From contig CANLWS010000008.1 of assembly GCA_947494925.1 (NCBI GenBank), positions 172,394 to 236,393 of the forward strand: DNA of 64,000 nt. The letters are read 5' to 3'. The stretch's first letter is position 1, and every line of letters starts with the position of its first letter. A program made the position numbers and the translations under genes. Origin of the DNA: an uncultured Alteromonadaceae bacterium. GTDB lineage: Bacteria; Pseudomonadota; Gammaproteobacteria; Enterobacterales; Alteromonadaceae. Positions 2,547-38,975 of this stretch are shown here, piece by piece. Under the pieces are notes generated by a model that made no database searches, had not been told where the DNA came from, and saw only the letters and a program-made list of their open reading frames with translations.

Positions 2547-3917
2547 TTACAACTGATCGAGTTCGTTTTGCAATGCAATTGAAACAGGCTCAACCCCTGT
2601 TCCTCCCACGATGTTTCGTTTGTCCACCAGATACTCCAACTGCAGCACCGGGTATACATCATTATCAATCAAGGGTGAGAAAGTCTGCAAAGTTGTCAAT
2701 GGCAGATCTTCAATCGGTTTATTCTCCTCAAGAGCTTTTAATACCACTTGTCCGGAAATATCGTGAGCCGTCCTGAAGGGCACACCTTTTGCGACAAGGT
2801 AATCTGCCAGCTCAGTGGCATTTGCATAACCTTGCTTTGCAGCTTCGGCGCAACGATCCACATCAAGTTCTACGCTATCAAGCACCTCGCAGGCAATACA
2901 CAGGCAAATATGCCATTGATTGACTGCATCGAAGGCACCTTCTTTGTCTTCCTGCATATCTTTGTTATAAGCCAGAGGCAGACCTTTCATCGTCACTAAA
3001 AGTGCCTGTAAACTGCCAAATACACGCCCACATTTGCCGCGCATTAATTCCAAGGCGTCTGGGTTTTTCTTTTGTGGCATGAGGGACGAACCTGAAGTTA
3101 CCTGATCACCCAACCTGATAAAGCTGGCTTCGCCGGAATTGAAGAAAATCAGATCTTCCGCCAAACGGGATAAATGCATCATGCTGGTGCTGGCACAAAA
3201 CATCAGTTCCAACACATAGTCACGATCAGACACTGCGTCCAGGCTATTGACGCATGGAGAGGCAAAGCCTAATTGTTCTGCTATCAACTGCCGGTCAATA
3301 GGGTAGGTTGTGCCGGCCAGGGCCCCGCAGCCCAAGGGGCTCTGATTCATCCTTTGCTGCAAATCTTCCAGTCGACTGATATCACGTTTTAACATTTCTA
3401 CATAGGCCAGACACCAGTGGGGAAATCTCACAGGTTGTGCACGCTGTAAATGGGTATAGCCGGGCAAAATCGCCAATTTGAATTTATCTGCCAGTTTAAC
3501 CAGGGAAGTTTTAGCGTTCACCAGATCCTTGATTAAAAACTCGATATGCTCTTTGCACCATAAACGGAAGTCGGTCGCAACCTGGTCATTCCGGCTGCGG
3601 CCTGTGTGAAGCTTGCGCCCCAGGTCGCCAAGTTTTTCGATCAGGGCTGCTTCGATGAAACTATGAATGTCTTCTTCCGGGCTTGCGTCAAAATCCAGTT
3701 CATTGGATTCAGCAAGCGCTAGCAACTCATTTAATGCGTTCTCTATTTCCTGCTGTTCCGCAACAGTTAACACACCTGCTGCCGCGATTGCTCTGGACCA
3801 GACAATAGAACCAGTAATATCCTGCTTTACCAGAATGCGGTCAAAGGGCAGCGAATCATTGACTTGCCTGAACATGTCACTGCTGCCTTGTTGAAAACGC
3901 CCGCCCCATAAACTCAT
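2547..3917 (-). CDS. argH: Argininosuccinate lyase
   Basis: 456 aa starting [26 protein letters not shown]…, with fumarate-lyase signature [12 protein letters not shown]. Its start overlaps the argG stop by 1 nt. Confidence 0.95.
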
Positions 3918-5155
3918 TATTCTATTCCTGTATTTTTAAATGGTATGCCGCTTTTGTTCATCGCTTCAATGCGACTGGACAGGCTGAATAAACGAATAAA
4001 CCCTTCAGCATGACTCTGGTCATATACATCGTCAGCCCCAAAGGTGGCAAAATCTTCAGAGTACAGGCTATTCGGTGAACGGCGTTGGGTGACTGTCGCC
4101 TGACCTTTATAAAGCTTAACTACAATGTCGCCTGTAACTTTCTGAGCAAAGCTGGCCGCGCCAGCTAACAAGGCATCGTTTAACGCTGTGAACCACCTTC
4201 CGTCATACATCACATGGGAGTACTCAAGACCTATTTGTTCTCTGTATTTTAAAGCTGATTTGTCCAGCACCAGGCACTCCAGGGCCTTGTACGCGGCCAT
4301 AATGACTGTGCCTCCTGGTGTTTCATAACAGCCTCTGGATTTCATACCAACCAAACGATTTTCAACTATGTCGATGCGACCTACGCCATGGGCGGCCGCC
4401 AGACCATTGAGTTTCATGAGAGCTTGATAAGGACTCAAAGATTCGTCATTAACTTTTACCAGACGACCTTTTTCGAAACTTAGCTGCACGCGCTCAGGCG
4501 TATCCGGAGCGTCTTCTGGGTCAACAGTCATTGTCCAGATTTGTTTGGTTGGCTCGCTCCACGGGTCTTCTAACTCACCGCCTTCATGGGAAATGTGCCA
4601 TGCATTGGCATCCCGGCTGTAAATTTTTGTCGCTGAGGCGCTCGTTTTGATATCTCTCTCTGCAAGATAATCAAGCAGGTCTTCACGGGATACCATATCC
4701 CATTCACGCCAAGGTGCTATAACAGCCAGGTCGGGAGCCAAGGCTGAAAAAGTGCCTTCAAAACGTACCTGATCATTGCCTTTACCTGTGCAGCCATGAC
4801 ATAAAGCATCAGCGCCAACTTTTCGCGCAATTTCTACCTGGGCTTTAGCAATGATGGGTCTGGCCATCGACGTACCTAGCAAATACTCGCCTTCGTAAAC
4901 TGCACCAGTGGTGATAGTGGGGAAAACATAATCGGAAATGAATTCTTCTTTCAGGTCGACTATGTAACACTCGCTTGCACCAGTTTTAATAGCCTTTTCA
5001 TACAGGCCTTCAAGCTCTTCTTCCCCTTGACCCACATCGGCTGCAAAGGCGACAACTTCACAGTCATAATTTTCCTTTAACCAGGGAATAATGGCTGATG
5101 TATCGAGGCCGCCAGAATAGGCCAATACCACTTTTTTAAATGATTGTTTAGACAT
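3917..5155 (-). CDS. argG: Argininosuccinate synthase. The start is trimmed to the Met of MSKQSF…, which has an AAGGAA RBS 8 nt upstream; the table ORF extends 10 codons further.
   Basis: [11 protein letters not shown]-loop ATP pyrophosphatase motif and about 410 aa of ArgG-like sequence. 'cat' at 5153-5155 with an upstream AAGGAA. Confidence 0.93.
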
Positions 5156-5165
5156 GAATAATTCC

Positions 5166-6086
5166 TTACTGTGAATCGCTGCCAAATAGGTGCGTTAAAA
5201 TGGCGTTTTGGCCATGCATTCTGTTTTCTGCCTGTTGCAACAGTAATGATTGCTCTGAATCAATCAGGTTGCCACTAATTTCTAAATCACGATGTGCTGG
5301 CTGACAGTGCATGACATATTTTGCGCCTGTCGCCTGCATCATCTGTTCATTGACCATGTAAGGGTCAAAAGTCTTGCGAATTTGTTCAAGTGGAGTTGTA
5401 TCTCCCATGGATAACCAGGTATCAGTGTAGAGAACATTGGCACCTTTGGCTGCGCCTATGTCATTGCTTTGCGAAATACTTGCACCACTATTTGTTGCCA
5501 GCTCTTTGGCAACAGCAACTAATTCGCTATCAGCCTCGTAGCCAGGTGGCGTTACAGAAACAACATTTACTCCCAATATAGCGCCCACAATCATCAATGA
5601 GTGAGTCACGTTATTTCCGTCTCCGACGTAAGCCAGAGTTAGGCCTTCCAACTCGCCATGGATTTCTCTTAAGGTGAGAAAATCAGCAAGCGCCTGGCAA
5701 GGGTGATAAAGATCGCAGAGTGCATTGATAACCGGAACTGAGGCGGCCTCTGACATCTGTTGCAATGTTGAGTGAGAATATACACGTGCAATAATCGCAT
5801 CGGCCCAACAGGCGAGATTAGCCCCCATATCTTTGGCATCCTCTCGTCCTGCCAATTTGCCAGCCTGGCTATCAAGGTAGACCATGTGTCCGCCCAGTTT
5901 GTTGATTCCGATGTCAAAACTCACCCTAGTTCTAAGTGACGGTTTCTCAAACAAGGCAACGATAGATTTGCCCTGGAGAACCTCACTGAACTCCGCTGGA
6001 TTCTGTTTAATCTTTGTGGCCAGCGTTAAAAGGTTTTCTAACCCGTCTTTTGACCATTCTTTAAAGGTTAATAAGTCCTGTTTCAT
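5166..6086 (-). CDS. argF: Ornithine carbamoyltransferase
   Basis: 306 aa with the STRTR carbamoyl-phosphate-binding motif ([10 protein letters not shown]), HCLP-like motif (HCQPAHR) and DxxxSMG-like motif. It overlaps argB by 4 nt. Confidence 0.92.
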
Positions 6087-10507: not shown

Positions 10508-11266
10508 TTAAACGCTGCCTTTCGAGTCTCGTTGTTGACGCTTTTTAAAGCGTTTCTTCATCATTTTTTCAGCTTTTGCCTGCTGATCCTCTGTAAGCAA
10601 GTTCCAAACCTGATGCCGGGCTTGAGCACGAAGAACTCCGTTTTGAACCATCTGAACCTGTTGTTGTTCGAACAGCGCTTGCCATGCTTCCTGGTCAAAC
10701 TCTTCTGCTTTAATGAGTTCTGCCTGAGCTGCTTTGAATACGCTTCGCTGAGCCTTAGCTGCTTCTCTTTGCACGAGATTCTCAGCCATGATTTGGTTGA
10801 TTTGTGTTTGTTGCTCTTCAGTTAAGTCAAGCTTGGCCAATCTCCTTGCGATGCGGTCTTTTGGATCTCTTACCTCTCGCTCACTTAATTGTTGTTCAAA
10901 TTCGTTTTTCTGTTCGTCTGATAGCAGTTGCCACACCTGATGCCGGCGCTGAGCGCGTTCTAAAGCAAGTTCTGCACGTAAGTCACTGCGCCCTTGCAAA
11001 AGTGCTTTAACTGCGTCTGAGTCAAAAGAATCGCTTTGAACCTGGGCGCGCAATTGTTGACCAAAGTCACGGAAGTCTGCTTTAAATACTGAACGGTCCT
11101 GACGCCCATCTTGCAATATTTGTTGAATATCCTGACGTTGCTCGGTAGACAAATCCAACTGTTTGAGGATTTTCCTCATTCCGTCTCGATCTGATTTGCC
11201 TGGCCCTGCAATGACAGTCGCAGAGAGAATTGCTGAAATACTTAGTACCAATACTTTTTTAAACAT
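10508..11266 (-). CDS. cpxP: CpxP/Spy-family periplasmic LTXXQ-motif protein with a duplicated module (about 250 aa mature-plus-signal, against about 166 aa for E. coli CpxP). The start is trimmed to MFKKVLVLSIS…
   Basis: Signal peptide, three LTXXQ-type motifs (LSTEQRQDI, LTEEQQTQI, LTEDQQAKA) and a highly charged helical sequence. It sits divergent to the cpxRA-like genes exactly as in E. coli. GGAGAA RBS present. Confidence 0.7.
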   Translation of the reverse strand: MFKKVLVLSISAILSATVIAGPGKSDRDGMRKILKQLDLSTEQRQDIQQILQDGRQDRSVFKADFRDFGQQLRAQVQSDSFDSDAVKALLQGRSDLRAELALERAQRRHQVWQLLSDEQKNEFEQQLSEREVRDPKDRIARRLAKLDLTEEQQTQINQIMAENLVQREAAKAQRSVFKAAQAELIKAEEFDQEAWQALFEQQQVQMVQNGVLRAQARHQVWNLLTEDQQAKAEKMMKKRFKKRQQRDSKGSV

Positions 11267-11431
11267 AAGATGGTTCTCCAGTCGGTTTTTAACGTTGAGT
11301 TGATTTAAATAGTAGCGTTTGCAATGCAAAGAAACGTCTAGGCAATGTAAAGCTTGTGTAAATTTGCCTTATTAAGGCTACGTGAGATGCATTTGAGTGA
11401 TTAAAATAGAGAACAGTGAATGGAGGATATA

Positions 11432-12127
11432 ATGAGCAAAAAGTCACTGTTGTTGATTGATGACGATAAGGATTTAACCGACTTGTTGGAAGAATACTTA
11501 AGCGCTCAAGGTTATGAAATTCTTGTGGCACATGATGGTGAGTCAGGTCTGGCGATGGCAACAGGTGCTCAACATTTAGATCTGATATTGCTTGATGTCA
11601 TGCTGCCCAAAATGGATGGCTTCGAAGTCTTAAAGAAACTGCGTGTAAGCCACTTAACGCCTGTATTGATGCTGACGGCGAAAGGCGACGACTTCGACCG
11701 CATATTCGGGCTTGAAATGGGGGCGGATGACTACCTGGCTAAGCCATTTAATCATCGGGAGTTGTCTGCAAGAATTAAAGCTATTGTCAGGCGTATGGAT
11801 TATTTACCTAGCGCCGGACAACAACAGGAACTGGTATTGGATGACGTCAGTTTAAATCCATCCAATCAACAAGTTGTCTGCGCCGGAAACACTTTGGAGC
11901 TGACAGCAACTGAGTTTTTGGTATTGCAGTTGTTAATGATTAATAAGACCAAAATTGTCAGTAAGCAGGATATCAGTGAAAAAATTCTGGGCCGAAAATT
12001 GATGGCGTTTGATCGCAGTATTGATATGCATGTCAGCAACTTACGCAGGAAACTGGCGAATTTCTCATCTACAGAGAAAATTAAAACCGTTAGAGGGTCT
12101 GGTTACATGTATCTGGTGCAAGCTTGA
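11432..12127 (+). CDS. cpxR: OmpR-family response regulator, CpxR-like. The start is placed at MSKKSLLLIDDD, which has a GGAGGA RBS.
   Basis: The receiver domain closely resembles E. coli CpxR (LDVMLPKMDGFEVLKKLR…LTAKGDDFDRIFGLEMGADDYLAKPFNHRELSARIKAIVRR), and there is a winged-helix C-terminus. Confidence 0.85.
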   Translation: MSKKSLLLIDDDKDLTDLLEEYLSAQGYEILVAHDGESGLAMATGAQHLDLILLDVMLPKMDGFEVLKKLRVSHLTPVLMLTAKGDDFDRIFGLEMGADDYLAKPFNHRELSARIKAIVRRMDYLPSAGQQQELVLDDVSLNPSNQQVVCAGNTLELTATEFLVLQLLMINKTKIVSKQDISEKILGRKLMAFDRSIDMHVSNLRRKLANFSSTEKIKTVRGSGYMYLVQA

Positions 12128-13521
12128 GATTACTAAAAAAATTAAATCCGATAAATAGCCTGTTTGGCAGAATATTCCTGTGGTTCTGGTTGGCCACTTT
12201 CCTCATGATTGCGTCTGCATTTTGGATGGCAAAACAGTTGAGCGATGGTTATGAAATCGCACCGTTAACTCAACGGGGAGTCGCCAAACTTGAAGCTTCG
12301 GCTGAACGGATAAGTCGGGCATTAAGTCGTCATGGTGCTGACAACCTACCTCAATTGCTAGAAAGATTGGGGCGTAGGAGCAACGCCGCCATGATGCTGG
12401 TTAATATGGACAATAAAAAATTTATTTATGGTTTTCCCAGGCCTCTGCGTCCAGAGAAAGAGCCATTTATGCAACTACTGACCCAAACAAGCCCGCTCAA
12501 AGTCAGGACGCCTATAGGTCCCTTTTTTGGCCCTATCGAATTGATGGTTAATGACCAACCTCACAAATTGTTTGTTGGGGATAAATTACGCCCTGGTTTT
12601 GTTCAGCAAATTCGTCATCGTCACCCAGGTATCTTTATCGCCAGTGCCCTATTCGTTAGCGGACTGCTTTGCGCGCTACTTGCATGGTCTCTGGTCAGCC
12701 CACTTCAGCAGTTACGAAAAGCAGCTAAACAGATGGCTGGCGGAGACTTGGGAGCGCGAGTCGGATCTGCCAGTCAGCGTGGTGACGAAATTGGCCAATT
12801 GGGCGAAGATTTTAATGTGATGGCCACACAGGTTGAATCTGCCGCGCAAAGGCAAAAGCGACTACTGGCAGACATTTCTCATGAATTGCGTTCACCATTG
12901 GCACGTTTACAGGTGGCCATTGGCATTGCAGACCAGGAAGCGTCAGCAACTAATACACCCCTGCATGGACAACTTCCCAGAATCGAAAAAGAAGCTCGGC
13001 AAATTGACAAGATGTTGGAGCAATTGCTCCAATTATCCAAGTTAGAAGGCATACAACAAGTTCCTGAAAAACAGAGCTTTGATTTCCAGGAGCTGATACA
13101 TGGACTCGTAGATGATGCGCAGTATGAAGCGAATGCAGCAGGCAAACAGGTTTCACTAGAGTTTGATCAGAAAGTTAGCGTTAGTGGCGACCCGCAGCTT
13201 CTTTCAAGTGCGATTGGAAACGTTTTAAGTAATGCCGTCAAATATTGTTCGACTAAAGTTCAAGTGAAGGTCAGTATTGAAGAGAGTACTATCCGTATCA
13301 ACGTAATGGATGATGGTGAAGGTGTCCCAGAAGATTTACTGAATGAAATTTTCACACCGTTTTACCGTCTGTCCGCATCCAGGACCCGAAAGTCTGGTGG
13401 TGTCGGCTTAGGTCTGGCAATCGCCAAGCAAGCGGTTCTAACGCACAATGGACAGATCAGCGCTGTTAACGACGGGCTAGGTGGTCTTAATGTGACCATT
13501 TTTTTGCCGCTTGAAAGCTAG
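12124..13521 (+). CDS. cpxA: Sensor histidine kinase, CpxA-like. It apparently uses a TTG start that overlaps the cpxR stop.
   Basis: Two TM segments flank a periplasmic domain, followed by a HAMP domain, the H-box LLADISHELRSPLARLQ and N/G boxes (GGVGLGLAIAK). At 465 aa it is similar in length to CpxA (457 aa). Confidence 0.8.
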   Translation: MRLLKKLNPINSLFGRIFLWFWLATFLMIASAFWMAKQLSDGYEIAPLTQRGVAKLEASAERISRALSRHGADNLPQLLERLGRRSNAAMMLVNMDNKKFIYGFPRPLRPEKEPFMQLLTQTSPLKVRTPIGPFFGPIELMVNDQPHKLFVGDKLRPGFVQQIRHRHPGIFIASALFVSGLLCALLAWSLVSPLQQLRKAAKQMAGGDLGARVGSASQRGDEIGQLGEDFNVMATQVESAAQRQKRLLADISHELRSPLARLQVAIGIADQEASATNTPLHGQLPRIEKEARQIDKMLEQLLQLSKLEGIQQVPEKQSFDFQELIHGLVDDAQYEANAAGKQVSLEFDQKVSVSGDPQLLSSAIGNVLSNAVKYCSTKVQVKVSIEESTIRINVMDDGEGVPEDLLNEIFTPFYRLSASRTRKSGGVGLGLAIAKQAVLTHNGQISAVNDGLGGLNVTIFLPLES

Positions 13522-14740: not shown

Positions 14741-14774
14741 TAACCCCAACTCGCTTATTCTGAGTTGGGGTTAA
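14741..14774. repeat. Palindromic intergenic element (terminator-like) between pldB and the MCP gene. It is a member of the AACCCCAACTCG family.
   Basis: TAACCCCAACTC-(9 nt)-GAGTTGGGGTTA, a 12-bp perfect inverted repeat. Confidence 0.6.
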
Positions 14775-14782
14775 CCTGTGCT

Positions 14783-16477
14783 CTATGTTTGAAAGACGTT
14801 CAAACTCGTATGCAAATCAACCAGGCTTCTTGCAATCCGCTGATTGGCCTGTTCGGTTTTTTTCGCCCCTGCAGTAGTTTCTTCTGCCACTTCTTTGATA
14901 CGGGTGAGATTGCGGTTAATTTCTTCAGCAACCATTGATTGTTGTTCGGCTGCCGCGGCAATTTGTATATTCAAGCTTGAAATTTGACCAACAGAAGCAG
15001 CTGCTTTTTCAAATGTTTGGGCAGTGGAGGTGGCCTTTGCCAAACATAATTGAGCACTTTCACTGCCTTTTTCCATACTGCTTACGGCATTGTTAGCCTC
15101 ATTTTGTAACCGGCCAACTAAGTCCTGAATATCCACTGTGGACGTTTGAGTGCGCTGAGCCAGAGATCTGACTTCATCAGCAACTACAGCAAATCCTCGA
15201 CCACTTTCTCCCGCTCTGGCAGCCTCAATTGCAGCGTTTAGTGCCAGTAGATTAGTCTGTTCTGCAATGCCCTGGATATTATCAAGAACGCTGCCTATTT
15301 TGTTCGTTTCTGATACCAATGCCTGAATAACGGAAGATGCAACGCCTACTTCTTCTGTAAGTTGTGTGATGATCGCTTGTGTTTCGAGGGCTTCTTTTCG
15401 ACCACTGACGACATTATCACTGACATTCTCAGTTACTTCTGCAGCTGAATTCGCGTTGTTGGCAACCTCTTGTGTGGTGGCACTCATCTGATTGACGGCT
15501 GTCGCAACCTGTTCGGTCTCACAGCGTTGTTGCTCAACATCGCGCAGCGTGCGTTGCATAACGTCTAATGCAACCTCTGCTGACTCTCCCAGCGTATCAG
15601 CTTGATTGCTTGTGCCCGAAATCAATTTCCGTAGTTTATCCATAAAATGATTGAATGCCCTAGCTACATCCCCTGTTTCATCGTGAGCGTTGTCAGGTAA
15701 GGTCACTGTCAGGTCTCCATCACCATCAGCAATTTGAATCAATCTTTTTTCGAGGTCAATAACAGGTGCACTAATAGCGCGCGCGATAAAAAACGGTGCG
15801 GTTATACCAAATAATACAGCAATAACAAACACGACTGTCATCCACACAATCGCTGTTTGTTCATCATGTTCTGCCTGTAGAGTGCTTTTAAGCGTAAAGT
15901 TTGCAACTTTGACCGATAAAGCTATCAGCTCTTCTTCCAATACATGTTCTATTCTTTCAATCTCAGTGCTTAAACTAATAAGTGCTTCCAGCTGGTTGTT
16001 TCGAATGAATCCGATTGTCGACTGAATGTGCCCGCCAAGTTCAAGATAGTGTCCTTCGATTTTAGTCAGCTCCGCCAAGACAGCTCTAAACTCATCTTCT
16101 GCCTCTTTAGAATGAAGTTCAGACATTGAGGCTTGGACAAAATTTTCTGCCTCTTTGATTTCTTTGAGAATCTTTTTGTCAAATTCTGTCAGCTTTTGTA
16201 CCAACTGATTAATCTTCTGCTGGGCATTCGAATGTCCAGCGTTCAGCCTGGCAGATTGAAACAGTAAGGTTTGAAATGCGATTGTTTGCTCTAATTGATG
16301 TTCGGTAAGCAGGTTTATTGCATTTGAAAGTGGAATATCTTTTTCGGCTATATCTACCAGCTCCGCACCTATTTTATCCATCTGGCCAAGAGAAACCGCG
16401 CCCATAAGCAACATGAATAACAACTGGAGTATGGCCAGAAAATAAACTTTTTGAGAAATTTTTAATTTTTGCAGCAT
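14783..16477 (-). CDS. Methyl-accepting chemotaxis protein
   Basis: An N-terminal TM segment, a ligand-binding region, a second TM plus HAMP domain, and the highly conserved MCP signalling domain (…[34 protein letters not shown]…). Confidence 0.9.
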
Positions 16478-16914
16478 TAACTTTTCTCCGGTTCACGTAA
16501 TTTAGACTTAAAGTAAGTCAACATATCCAGCGCAAAACCTTTGTGAGTCAGCAGATGATCGTCTTTGCTGTCTGTTTCAAGAAATTCTGAATACCCGTTT
16601 AACTCGCTCGCCGAAATATTACCTATATTGCGGAAAGCCATTTTCCAGTCTGGAAAGCCCCTGCTGGTTATCTTGTTTCGCCACAAAACGTTCACCCGGC
16701 TATGGCGGTCATCACGTTTGATTTTTTCGAATAAGGGCTCTACATCTTCACTGTCTCCTTCAAGAGCTTGCATAAAAGTGCCTTGGCCGTCATACAAAAG
16801 TATGCCTGTGATGTCTTTATCGGCATTATTCTTTCGGGCAACAGCCAGCATTTCTGCCAACTGAGGTTCCTGGAATCTACTTTCTGCCCTGCTCACATAA
16901 ATTAATTCGATCAT
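16477..16914 (-). CDS. Short BLUF-domain (blue-light FAD) photoreceptor
   Basis: 145 aa with BLUF signature residues: Y in LIYVSRA, ITGILLY, Q in [11 protein letters not shown], and W in FPDWKMAF. Its stop overlaps the MCP start (TAATG). Confidence 0.75.
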
Positions 16915-16967
16915 TAAAGCTCCCCACCATTTGAAAAGTGAACGCTAAGAATGGACTAACATTAGTG

Positions 16968-17432
16968 TTAGAAGGGTCTGACAAAGGCCACGCCGAGTAC
17001 CCAAGCTTCTTCACCATCGATAAAGTCAACGGCTAAAGTGGGTTCAATATTGAAGTCTCCAAGGTGATAATCGTAATTTATGCTGAGACGGTACAGATCC
17101 TCAGTGTGAGGGTGGTCACCGCCAATTTTCTCTTCGCCAAATCCGACACCAATTCTGAGGTAACTGAAGGGGTGGTAGTAGAGTGCCGCTAGTTTGACGG
17201 TAACCCCATCACCATGATGCGCATCGTCGGTTTTTTCATACACTGCGCCTACCCCCCACTGGGGCTTAAACTTGTATTCATACTCGATACCATAGGTAAA
17301 CTCAGTATCACTTTCTGCATGTGTAGCCCCCAGAAAAATACCCGGGAAATGTTTGGCGTCGCCAGCAGCGTAAAGGTTTAGCGGTAGAAGTGTAACGAAT
17401 AAAATGCACAGTAATTTAGAAACTTTAGACAT
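16968..17432 (-). CDS. Small outer-membrane beta-barrel protein of uncertain family. The start is trimmed to MSKVSKLL…
   Basis: A signal peptide is followed by alternating aromatic/hydrophobic beta-strand patterns and a C-terminal …AFVRPF (terminal Phe). An AGGA RBS precedes the trimmed start. Confidence 0.5.
   Translation of the reverse strand: MSKVSKLLCILFVTLLPLNLYAAGDAKHFPGIFLGATHAESDTEFTYGIEYEYKFKPQWGVGAVYEKTDDAHHGDGVTVKLAALYYHPFSYLRIGVGFGEEKIGGDHPHTEDLYRLSINYDYHLGDFNIEPTLAVDFIDGEEAWVLGVAFVRPF

Positions 17433-38802: not shown

Positions 38803-38878
<76 letters not shown>

Positions 38879-38899: not shown

Positions 38900-38975
<76 letters not shown>

Follow-up and report, generated by a model that had tools for sequence, protein, structure and literature searches.

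The conversion of blue light into swimming behaviour by non-photosynthetic bacteria is poorly understood. In Escherichia coli the response is indirect, running through the proton-motive force and the receptors Aer and Tar. To our knowledge, the transducer of photoactive yellow protein (PYP) was never found, and we know of only a handful of partners for the short BLUF proteins. Here, we describe a 64,000-nucleotide stretch of DNA from an uncultured Alteromonadaceae bacterium (contig CANLWS010000008.1; ‘the window’ refers to this whole stretch), in which a gene for a stand-alone, short BLUF photoreceptor is followed directly by a gene for a transmembrane methyl-accepting chemotaxis protein (MCP). 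The two genes occur together in many marine bacteria and in nearly all of the closest relatives of this BLUF protein, and the pair points to an undescribed route by which non-photosynthetic bacteria may steer by light.

In reviews, only PixD–PixE and YcgF are listed for BLUF proteins and motility (PMC5812497, PMC12627116). For the BLUF protein I6N98_15960 of Spongiibacter nanhainus CSC3.9, binding of flavin adenine dinucleotide (FAD) and a spectral change have been shown, and deletion of its gene alters light-dependent growth and soft-agar migration, with che/mot expression affected; a link to chemotaxis genes was proposed, with no MCP partner or direct mechanism named (PMC8805636). Fusions of a BLUF domain to an MCP have been listed from annotation in Achromatium (bioRxiv 10.64898/2026.03.30.715255). 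Our search of the open-access full-text literature brought up no study in which a BLUF protein acts on an MCP or is encoded together with one; this agrees with the statement in the initial annotation of this locus that no such partnership had been characterised.

The BLUF protein and the chemoreceptor

The BLUF protein matched the whole of the Pfam BLUF profile (PF04940; profile positions 1–92 of 92, E = 5.2e-31, 107 bits against a cut-off of 25). It carries the photocycle motifs LIYVS (Tyr6), FMQALEG (Gln49) and FPDWKMAF (Trp90 and Met92), together with the flavin-contacting Asn30. Across 36 MCP-linked homologues, each of the five residues is either invariant or conserved to at least 97%, and they align with the corresponding positions of bPAC. 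The initial annotation had held that every photocycle residue is present, and this was borne out by the sequence itself, by the homologues and by the match to bPAC. Judged from these residues, the protein is expected to bind flavin and to undergo the photochemistry of its family. Sequence matches in the PDB were to bPAC, TePixD, BlrB, PixD, BlsA and AppA.

The AlphaFold2 model of the BLUF protein, built with 18 homologues (pLDDT 85, pTM 0.79), predicts a ferredoxin-like core of β-α-β-β-α-β-β topology, with strands at residues 2–10, 36–41, 46–53, 71–81 and 93–96 and core helices at residues 16–32 and 55–66. Three short C-terminal helices (108–113, 117–123 and 125–138) are modelled in the approximately 50 residues beyond the BLUF core. 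When the model was compared with the PDB by Foldseek, the top matches were all BLUF structures: TePixD (1x0p, 8i98) and PixD (2hfn, 2hfo) came first, with template modelling (TM) scores of 0.75–0.84 over the whole chain (full-length scores to TePixD alone, 0.79–0.84), and bPAC, BlrB, BlsA and AppA came next. Hydropathy analysis found no hydrophobic segment, so that the protein is expected to be cytoplasmic, and Pfam found no second domain in its 145 residues, i.e., neither an enzymatic nor a DNA-binding domain. Because it is short and has no output domain, the BLUF protein must act through a partner, a dependence that the initial annotation had already supposed and with which the PixD-type model and the Foldseek matches agree. 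By sequence and model, it is thus predicted to be a cytoplasmic, short PixD-type protein, of the class that signals via separate partner proteins.

A HMMER scan of 1.84 billion cluster representatives returned 14,062 BLUF relatives. Since only seven of them scored at E ≤ 1e-30, the protein belongs to a small, distinct BLUF subfamily. Eight residues are specific to the clade (Ile2, Glu3, Arg13, Leu38, Asp42, Gly43, Ser109 and Phe127), and we attach no reading to them because they are inseparable from shared ancestry. Among the 150 nearest cluster representatives, the eight longest comprise proteins with tandem BLUF domains, a BLUF-cyclase and one BLUF-PsiE fusion. P0148, P0150, P0180, P0202, P0206 and P0227 consist of two or three BLUF domains in tandem and have no output domain, and P0188 combines two BLUF domains with cyclase domains. 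The BLUF-PsiE fusions, of 290–297 residues, combine a BLUF domain (3e-31) with a C-terminal membrane domain of the PsiE family (1e-25); they occur in Mariprofundus and other Zetaproteobacteria (loci L025, L026, L027, L035 and L044, at about 5001–5890, and also P0250), and no discussion of this architecture was found in the BLUF literature examined.

The product of the adjoining gene was matched by the Pfam profiles MCPsignal (PF00015, E = 7.4e-39) and HAMP (E = 1.4e-13, residues 230–283), both above the curated cut-offs. Hydropathy placed its first transmembrane segment at about residues 10–33, its periplasmic sensor at about 34–205 and its second transmembrane segment at about 206–237, the hydrophobic windows starting at residues 10–15 and 206–219. 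With the signalling domain, HAMP, both membrane segments and the sensor in place, the protein is a full-length MCP, as first described. Its signalling hairpin extends from residue 284 to residue 564 with the tip at Glu424, which gives 140 residues per arm, i.e., 20+20 heptads; on length only, the receptor would belong to the 40-heptad class (40H) of Vibrio/Pseudomonas-type flagellar systems. The tip sequence is 95–98% conserved among orthologues. In NCBIfam, the cytoplasmic half came nearest to CtpM-type receptors, below equivalog level, and the E. coli-type methylation consensus pattern had no match in the MCP. The sensor region gave weak TarH/4HB_MCP_1 matches in 12 of 15 orthologues, consistent with a helical, Tar-like sensor of the four-helix-bundle type, and the N-terminal part of the sensor is strongly conserved (MxKIGxELxDIAExDIPL...TEHQLEQA).

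Conservation of the gene pair and of a receptor motif

Conservation of the gene pair in relatives had been named beforehand, in the initial annotation, as a point on which the idea of a BLUF–MCP partnership could fail. The scan for BLUF loci was seeded with an 11-sequence alignment (an alignment of 18 BLUF sequences was set aside as too diverse), covered one genome per species and returned 80 loci, at which receptors were detected by tblastn with the window MCP. In 19 of the 20 closest loci, an orthologous MCP gene lies directly 3′ of the BLUF gene on the same strand, whereas no MCP gene lies within 5 kb at any of the 60 BLUF loci that are more distant (Bacteroidota, Zetaproteobacteria, Verrucomicrobiota and others). 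The pair is therefore kept in the relatives. At the 18 intact loci the receptors are 45–55% identical to the window MCP over residues 1–563, sensor included, and the spacing between the two genes ranges from –8 to +23 nt.

The 19 loci belong to Aliiglaciecola, eight Vibrio (among them V. coralliilyticus, V. hepatarius, V. pectenicida, V. ostreicida and V. tetraodonis), Rheinheimera baltica, two Bacterioplanes, two Cellvibrionaceae, Oleiphilaceae/Oleiphilus, Pseudoalteromonas holothuriae, Alteromonas and Thalassotalea; besides Vibrio, eight other gammaproteobacterial genera or families hold the pair. At one locus, in a long-read Cellvibrionaceae metagenome-assembled genome (MAG; L020, 5447–7140), the MCP is read in two frames, with pieces 38% and 55% identical, as a result of either a frameshift or an assembly error. 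When the flanking open reading frames (ORFs) were clustered, BLUF and MCP were the sole genes common across genera and the surrounding genes varied. Independent gene calls on metagenome contigs confirmed the BLUF–MCP arrangement in three different contexts. Because the pair persists while the flanking genes change, a functional coupling of the two products is strongly supported, and the pair appears to behave as a mobile two-gene module.

The reciprocal test started from the receptor. When the sensor region was used to look for homologues, only two proteins were retrieved; with the sensor domain as seed, a metagenome contig scan yielded 80 further loci, which were pooled with the genome loci. 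Wherever a metagenome locus has a BLUF gene, it lies directly 5′ of the receptor gene on the same strand. Four configurations were found, two of which include a gene for a predicted outer-membrane β-barrel that is described in the next section: barrel-BLUF-MCP (9 loci, plus the window), BLUF-MCP (21 loci, plus 4 in which the upstream sequence is too short to judge the barrel), barrel-MCP without BLUF (14 loci) and MCP alone (43 loci, mostly with a sensor identity of 36% or less). A rough neighbour-joining (NJ) tree was calculated from 71 full-length receptors. The BLUF-linked ones all group in a single clade, and the outgroups all lack both the BLUF and the barrel genes. These results suggest that BLUF is an accessory of one receptor lineage, repeatedly lost or, less likely, gained.

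A column-wise comparison of BLUF-linked receptors with BLUF-less receptors of the same clade revealed few positions that differ by BLUF presence, most of them at the extreme C-terminus and corresponding to window residues 553–556, in a motif of the form [IV][DE]LHxxLNxF. The [IV][DE]LH core is present in the window and in 28 of the 30 BLUF-linked receptors with a complete C-terminus, as against 1 of 40 BLUF-less relatives. The linked receptors read IDLH (26 of 30), IELH (two), ITLN (one) and ISLH (one), and the window receptor reads VDLH. The single BLUF-less holder of the core is L083 (MCP at 3001–4692), a close relative of the Vibrio receptors, with VDLH and an end in FRC. Thus the motif has diverged in three of the four apparently independent BLUF-less lineages within the clade, and L083, the fourth, keeps it. 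The last residues follow a related pattern: almost all BLUF-less receptors terminate in F-(K/R)-x and most linked receptors in F-(Q/V/I/L)-x, with Bacterioplanes (FKTE) and L020 (FRI) as exceptions to the linked type. At an Oleiphilaceae MAG locus (L012, 7441–9477), a second, paralogous MCP follows the BLUF-linked one and has a C-terminus of the BLUF-less type, HFKI.

Because each arm of the hairpin has 140 residues, the motif is placed at the membrane-proximal end of the bundle, beside HAMP. All linked receptors share Glu301, which in the hairpin register lies roughly one to two turns from the motif, on the facing helix. We regard the C-terminal motif, with weak to moderate confidence, as a candidate docking surface for BLUF, a suggestion limited by the small number of independent events and by shared ancestry as a confounder.

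The probable transcription unit and the predicted outer-membrane barrel gene

The features of the locus are collected in Table 1. Both ORFs lie where the initial annotation had them, and the TAATG overlap can be read directly on the minus strand, where the junction is ...AAAAGT TAATG CTG. The overlap is compatible with translational coupling. The initial annotation went further and took it as a sign of co-expression in a 1:1 ratio. This part did not stand: the overlap is not kept among orthologues, which also use small positive gaps with Shine-Dalgarno sequences of their own, and since the window MCP too has its own Shine-Dalgarno sequence and the spacing varies, a fixed ratio cannot be inferred. 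The feature kept across orthologues would be co-transcription, rather than the overlap or a fixed ratio. Likewise, the view of BLUF and MCP as a unit was upheld for the pairing and not for its two-gene extent, as the unit in the window consists of three co-oriented genes, barrel-BLUF-MCP, with the barrel gene probably leading the operon. The same three genes stand between trmL and hydrolase/two-component genes in a close syntenic relative (L161).

Table 1. Features of the BLUF–MCP locus and tRNA genes, in window coordinates
Feature	Position	Strand	Remarks
Stand-alone short (PixD-type) BLUF photoreceptor gene	16477..16914	minus	145 aa; ORF list
Transmembrane MCP gene	14783..16477	minus	564 aa; ORF list, Pfam
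TAATG overlap of BLUF stop and MCP start	16475..16479	minus	1 shared base; TAA 16479..16477, ATG 16477..16475
MCP Shine-Dalgarno GGAG	16486..16489	minus	within BLUF coding end; 9–12 nt 5′ of ATG; upstream 25-mer AATTACGTGAACCGGAGAAAAGTTA
BLUF Shine-Dalgarno GGGGAG	16920..16925	minus	6–11 nt 5′ of ATG; upstream 25-mer ACTTTTCAAATGGTGGGGAGCTTTA
Predicted outer-membrane β-barrel gene (‘HP’)	16968..17432	minus	154 aa; 53 nt 5′ of BLUF gene
Stem-loop followed by short U run	14741..14773	minus	12–13 bp; directly 3′ of MCP stop codon
Codons of MCP residues 553–556 (V-D-L-H)	14810..14821	minus	in C-terminal [IV][DE]LHxxLNxF motif
tRNA gene	38803..38875	plus	Rfam 70.4 bits; 25 nt from next tRNA gene
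tRNA gene	38900..38972	plus	Rfam 70.4 bits

The transcription unit likely closes at the stem-loop that follows the MCP stop codon, for which RNA folding gave –22.5 kcal/mol and a z-score of –3.4 relative to shuffled sequences. A scan for consensus terminators did not pick up this stem-loop, which we attribute to its 9-nt loop and weak T run. The promoter scan returned no sigma-70-like promoter on the minus strand near the operon, the sigma-28 consensus was found nowhere in the window, and Rfam had no match near the locus.

The barrel protein has an N-terminal hydrophobic leader ending in ...LNLYA/AGD, a terminal Phe and three invariant His-rich motifs, KHFPG, DDAHHGDG and GGxHPH (GGDHPH in the window). 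Its AlphaFold2 model has eight strands (pLDDT 90.5), the best Foldseek matches were Ail, NspA, OmpA-TM and OmpX (E = 5e-7 to 2e-5), and the Pfam OMP_b-brl match was below the cut-off. It is thus predicted to be a secreted, His-rich, eight-stranded outer-membrane barrel of the OmpX/Ail/NspA/OmpA-TM type; if its topology is the one customary for these barrels, the His-rich motifs would be located in extracellular loops 2 and 3, and our guess is that the protein binds metal. Homologues with 55–77% identity form at least 200 clusters in marine gammaproteobacteria, where they are unnamed or called ‘OMP beta-barrel’. The barrel gene recurs directly 5′ of this MCP family, with or without BLUF.

Next to the locus (10508..13521), a gene for a periplasmic LTXXQ/Metal_resist (CpxP/Spy-like) protein is divergent from genes for an OmpR-family response regulator and a HAMP histidine kinase, in an arrangement that looks Cpx-like. 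Because these genes are syntenic only in the close relatives L161 and L162, they are probably unrelated to the BLUF module.

Proposed mechanism, rival explanations and known systems

We consider it rather probable that the locus encodes a split photoreceptor-chemoreceptor, in which the light-activated BLUF protein changes its contact with the HAMP-proximal bundle of the receptor and so biases the control of CheA. In this scheme, the soluble PixD-type protein would be produced from the same transcript as the 40-heptad MCP and would bind flavin in the cytoplasm. Blue light would rearrange the hydrogen bonds around Tyr6, Gln49 and Met92 and shift the β5 strand and the C-terminal helices, upon which BLUF would alter its contact with the cytoplasmic part of the cognate MCP. 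The likeliest site of contact would be the membrane-proximal end of the four-helix bundle below HAMP, at the [IV][DE]LH..LNxF motif. Receptor control of CheA, and with it flagellar reversal, would thereby be biased, giving a photophobic or phototactic response. As the periplasmic bundle is retained, light is probably integrated with a chemical cue, and this cue may be linked to the co-encoded His-rich outer-membrane barrel. FAD binding by the Spongiibacter BLUF protein and its effect on light-dependent motility count for this proposal (PMC8805636).

A fuller version, which we put forward tentatively and hold to be possible rather than probable, would make the locus a three-part unit. Here BLUF would dock reversibly on [IV][DE]LH, and the receptor would also read a periplasmic cue, possibly a metal, tied to the barrel, so that light and chemistry would be integrated in one receptor dimer. 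Such a unit would be the first flavin-based two-polypeptide photoreceptor-transducer for flagellar photo-behaviour in marine heterotrophs, Vibrio coralliilyticus among them.

Several observations weigh against a split photoreceptor-chemoreceptor. In a Paraglaciecola MAG (L019, 5001–5414), a BLUF protein of the same subfamily, 43% identical, has no receptor gene 3′ of it; the next ORF there, of 506 aa, is on the opposite strand. At L162 (6001–7354), a locus syntenic with the window, a BLUF gene whose product is 58% identical is kept and the receptor is replaced. This locus shares its trmL, hydrolase and two-component neighbours with the window, has an ORF of 275 aa like an adenylyl/nucleotidyltransferase in the receptor's place and is without the barrel gene, on a contig with a coverage of about 2x. 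BLUF proteins of the L019 and L162 kind may point to other partners. Conversely, the receptor family, as judged from its sequences, can do without BLUF: a BLUF-less subclade of ten lies inside the clade of BLUF-linked receptors (8 of the 10 confirmed to have the barrel gene alone 5′), and three further BLUF-less members, L083, L087 and L096, are isolated within it. The candidate docking motif may reflect clade membership and not a contact surface, as independent losses of BLUF number only about four on a rough NJ tree. The Bacterioplanes receptors combine IDLH with the BLUF-less-style end FKTE. Gene fusion gave no Rosetta-stone support from close relatives: a domain scan covered the eight longest proteins among the 150 nearest BLUF cluster representatives, the rest being too short for an MCP domain, and found no BLUF-MCP fusion. 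Finally, the Che pathway downstream of the receptor is assumed.

The rival explanation that survives best is co-expression without contact, in which BLUF would target a transcription factor, a cyclic di-GMP enzyme or a CheY-like or PATAN-type regulator, and the receptor would merely belong to the same regulon, both genes serving behaviour related to light. We judge this unlikely. It is in keeping with the non-MCP partners of known short BLUF proteins (PixE, PapA and the transcription regulators of BlsA; PMC5812497), with the effect of the Spongiibacter BLUF on gene expression and growth (PMC8805636) and with the persistence of two BLUF proteins of the clade, at L019 and L162, without an MCP. 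It would leave unexplained, however, why no other gene is common to the loci, why the two genes stay tightly adjacent in constant order and strand, amid unrelated flanks, in nine or more genera or families, and why the receptor motif follows BLUF presence.

Alternatively, BLUF could act on the chemosensory array, through CheW/CheA, CheR/CheB or CheV, with the receptor as a mere scaffold, a reading to which we assign a distinctly lower probability again. Other receptor classes do tether adaptation enzymes at their C-terminal ends, by way of the NWETF pentapeptide, and both the conservation of the pair and the receptor-specific C-terminal motif would fit a tethering role. However, the motif is HAMP-proximal, some 140 residues from the kinase-binding tip, and at none of the loci examined do che genes accompany the pair.

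We find it very improbable that BLUF serves as a dark flavin or redox sensor, i.e., as an Aer-like input to energy taxis. A cytoplasmic flavoprotein beside a HAMP receptor does recall the PAS-FAD/HAMP layout of Aer; however, Tyr6, Gln49, Met92 and Trp90, which are needed for light-driven proton-coupled electron transfer, are invariant across the clade, which is what a photoreceptor would be expected to show and a redox sensor would not need. Chance adjacency, or a recent functionless local insertion, is conceivable in a single genome because MCP genes are numerous in marine gammaproteobacteria, but it is effectively refuted by the contrast between the closest BLUF loci, 19 of 20 of which have the pair, and the 60 distant ones, none of which does; the receptor is, besides, orthologous over its full length, sensor included, amid differing flanks. 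All four rivals are less likely than a split photoreceptor-chemoreceptor because the conservation of the pair is strict and exclusive.

The pair offers a specific candidate for a receptor partner in culturable, genetically tractable organisms, which include the coral pathogen Vibrio coralliilyticus, other Vibrio, Pseudoalteromonas and Rheinheimera baltica. If the proposal of a split photoreceptor-chemoreceptor is true, the few direct targets of BLUF proteins would come to include MCPs, and the pair would stand as the flavin-based equivalent of the archaeal sensory-rhodopsin/transducer pairs. It would also account for the light-dependent positioning of abundant marine heterotrophs and would provide a compact module for the optogenetic control of chemotaxis signalling.

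Among the systems described, the sensory rhodopsins and their transducers in haloarchaea (SRI-HtrI and SRII-HtrII) are alike in having a photoreceptor and an MCP-type transducer that are separate and encoded side by side. There, the genes are co-transcribed, and light alters the receptor-transducer contact near HAMP and hence the output of CheA. The BLUF–MCP pair is likewise an adjacent, co-oriented and conserved unit; it may work in a similar way, yet it is not homologous to these systems and not a member of their family. The haloarchaeal receptors are retinal proteins with seven helices and contact their transducers through membrane helices, whereas the BLUF protein is a predicted soluble flavoprotein, for which contact must be cytoplasmic. 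Aer of E. coli, too, has a cytoplasmic flavin sensor that acts laterally on HAMP and the proximal signalling region. It differs in being one polypeptide with a PAS-FAD domain, in sensing redox state and in having no periplasmic sensor, whereas in the window the sensor is a BLUF protein of its own, for which light is the predicted stimulus, and the receptor has a putative periplasmic four-helix bundle. The pair would thus resemble Aer in its working and lies outside its family.

Two further systems bring BLUF and chemotaxis together. I6N98_15960 of Spongiibacter resembles the window protein as a short BLUF of a marine gammaproteobacterial heterotroph, and differs in that the che/mot genes are kilobases away. 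The Achromatium fusions share the BLUF and MCP modules and a presumed role in blue-light taxis, and differ in being single polypeptides. PapB–PapA, BlsA and BlrB are alike as stand-alone BLUF proteins acting by protein-protein interaction; the partner is an EAL phosphodiesterase (PapA) or, for BlsA, transcription regulators, and not a chemoreceptor.

PixD–PixE of Synechocystis (Slr1694/Slr1693), with TePixD, shares with the window a short BLUF protein that has C-terminal helices (two in PixD), no output domain and a separately encoded partner, and PixD controls light-directed motility. The sequence identity between PixD and the BLUF protein of the window is only about 25%. The partners differ, in that PixE is a PATAN-REC protein serving type IV pili, whereas here no PixE-like (PATAN-REC) gene accompanies BLUF and the sole conserved neighbour encodes a transmembrane MCP, expected to serve the flagellar Che pathway. 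The BLUF protein of this locus belongs, by fold and architecture, to the short BLUF proteins, and its proposed partner is of a new kind.

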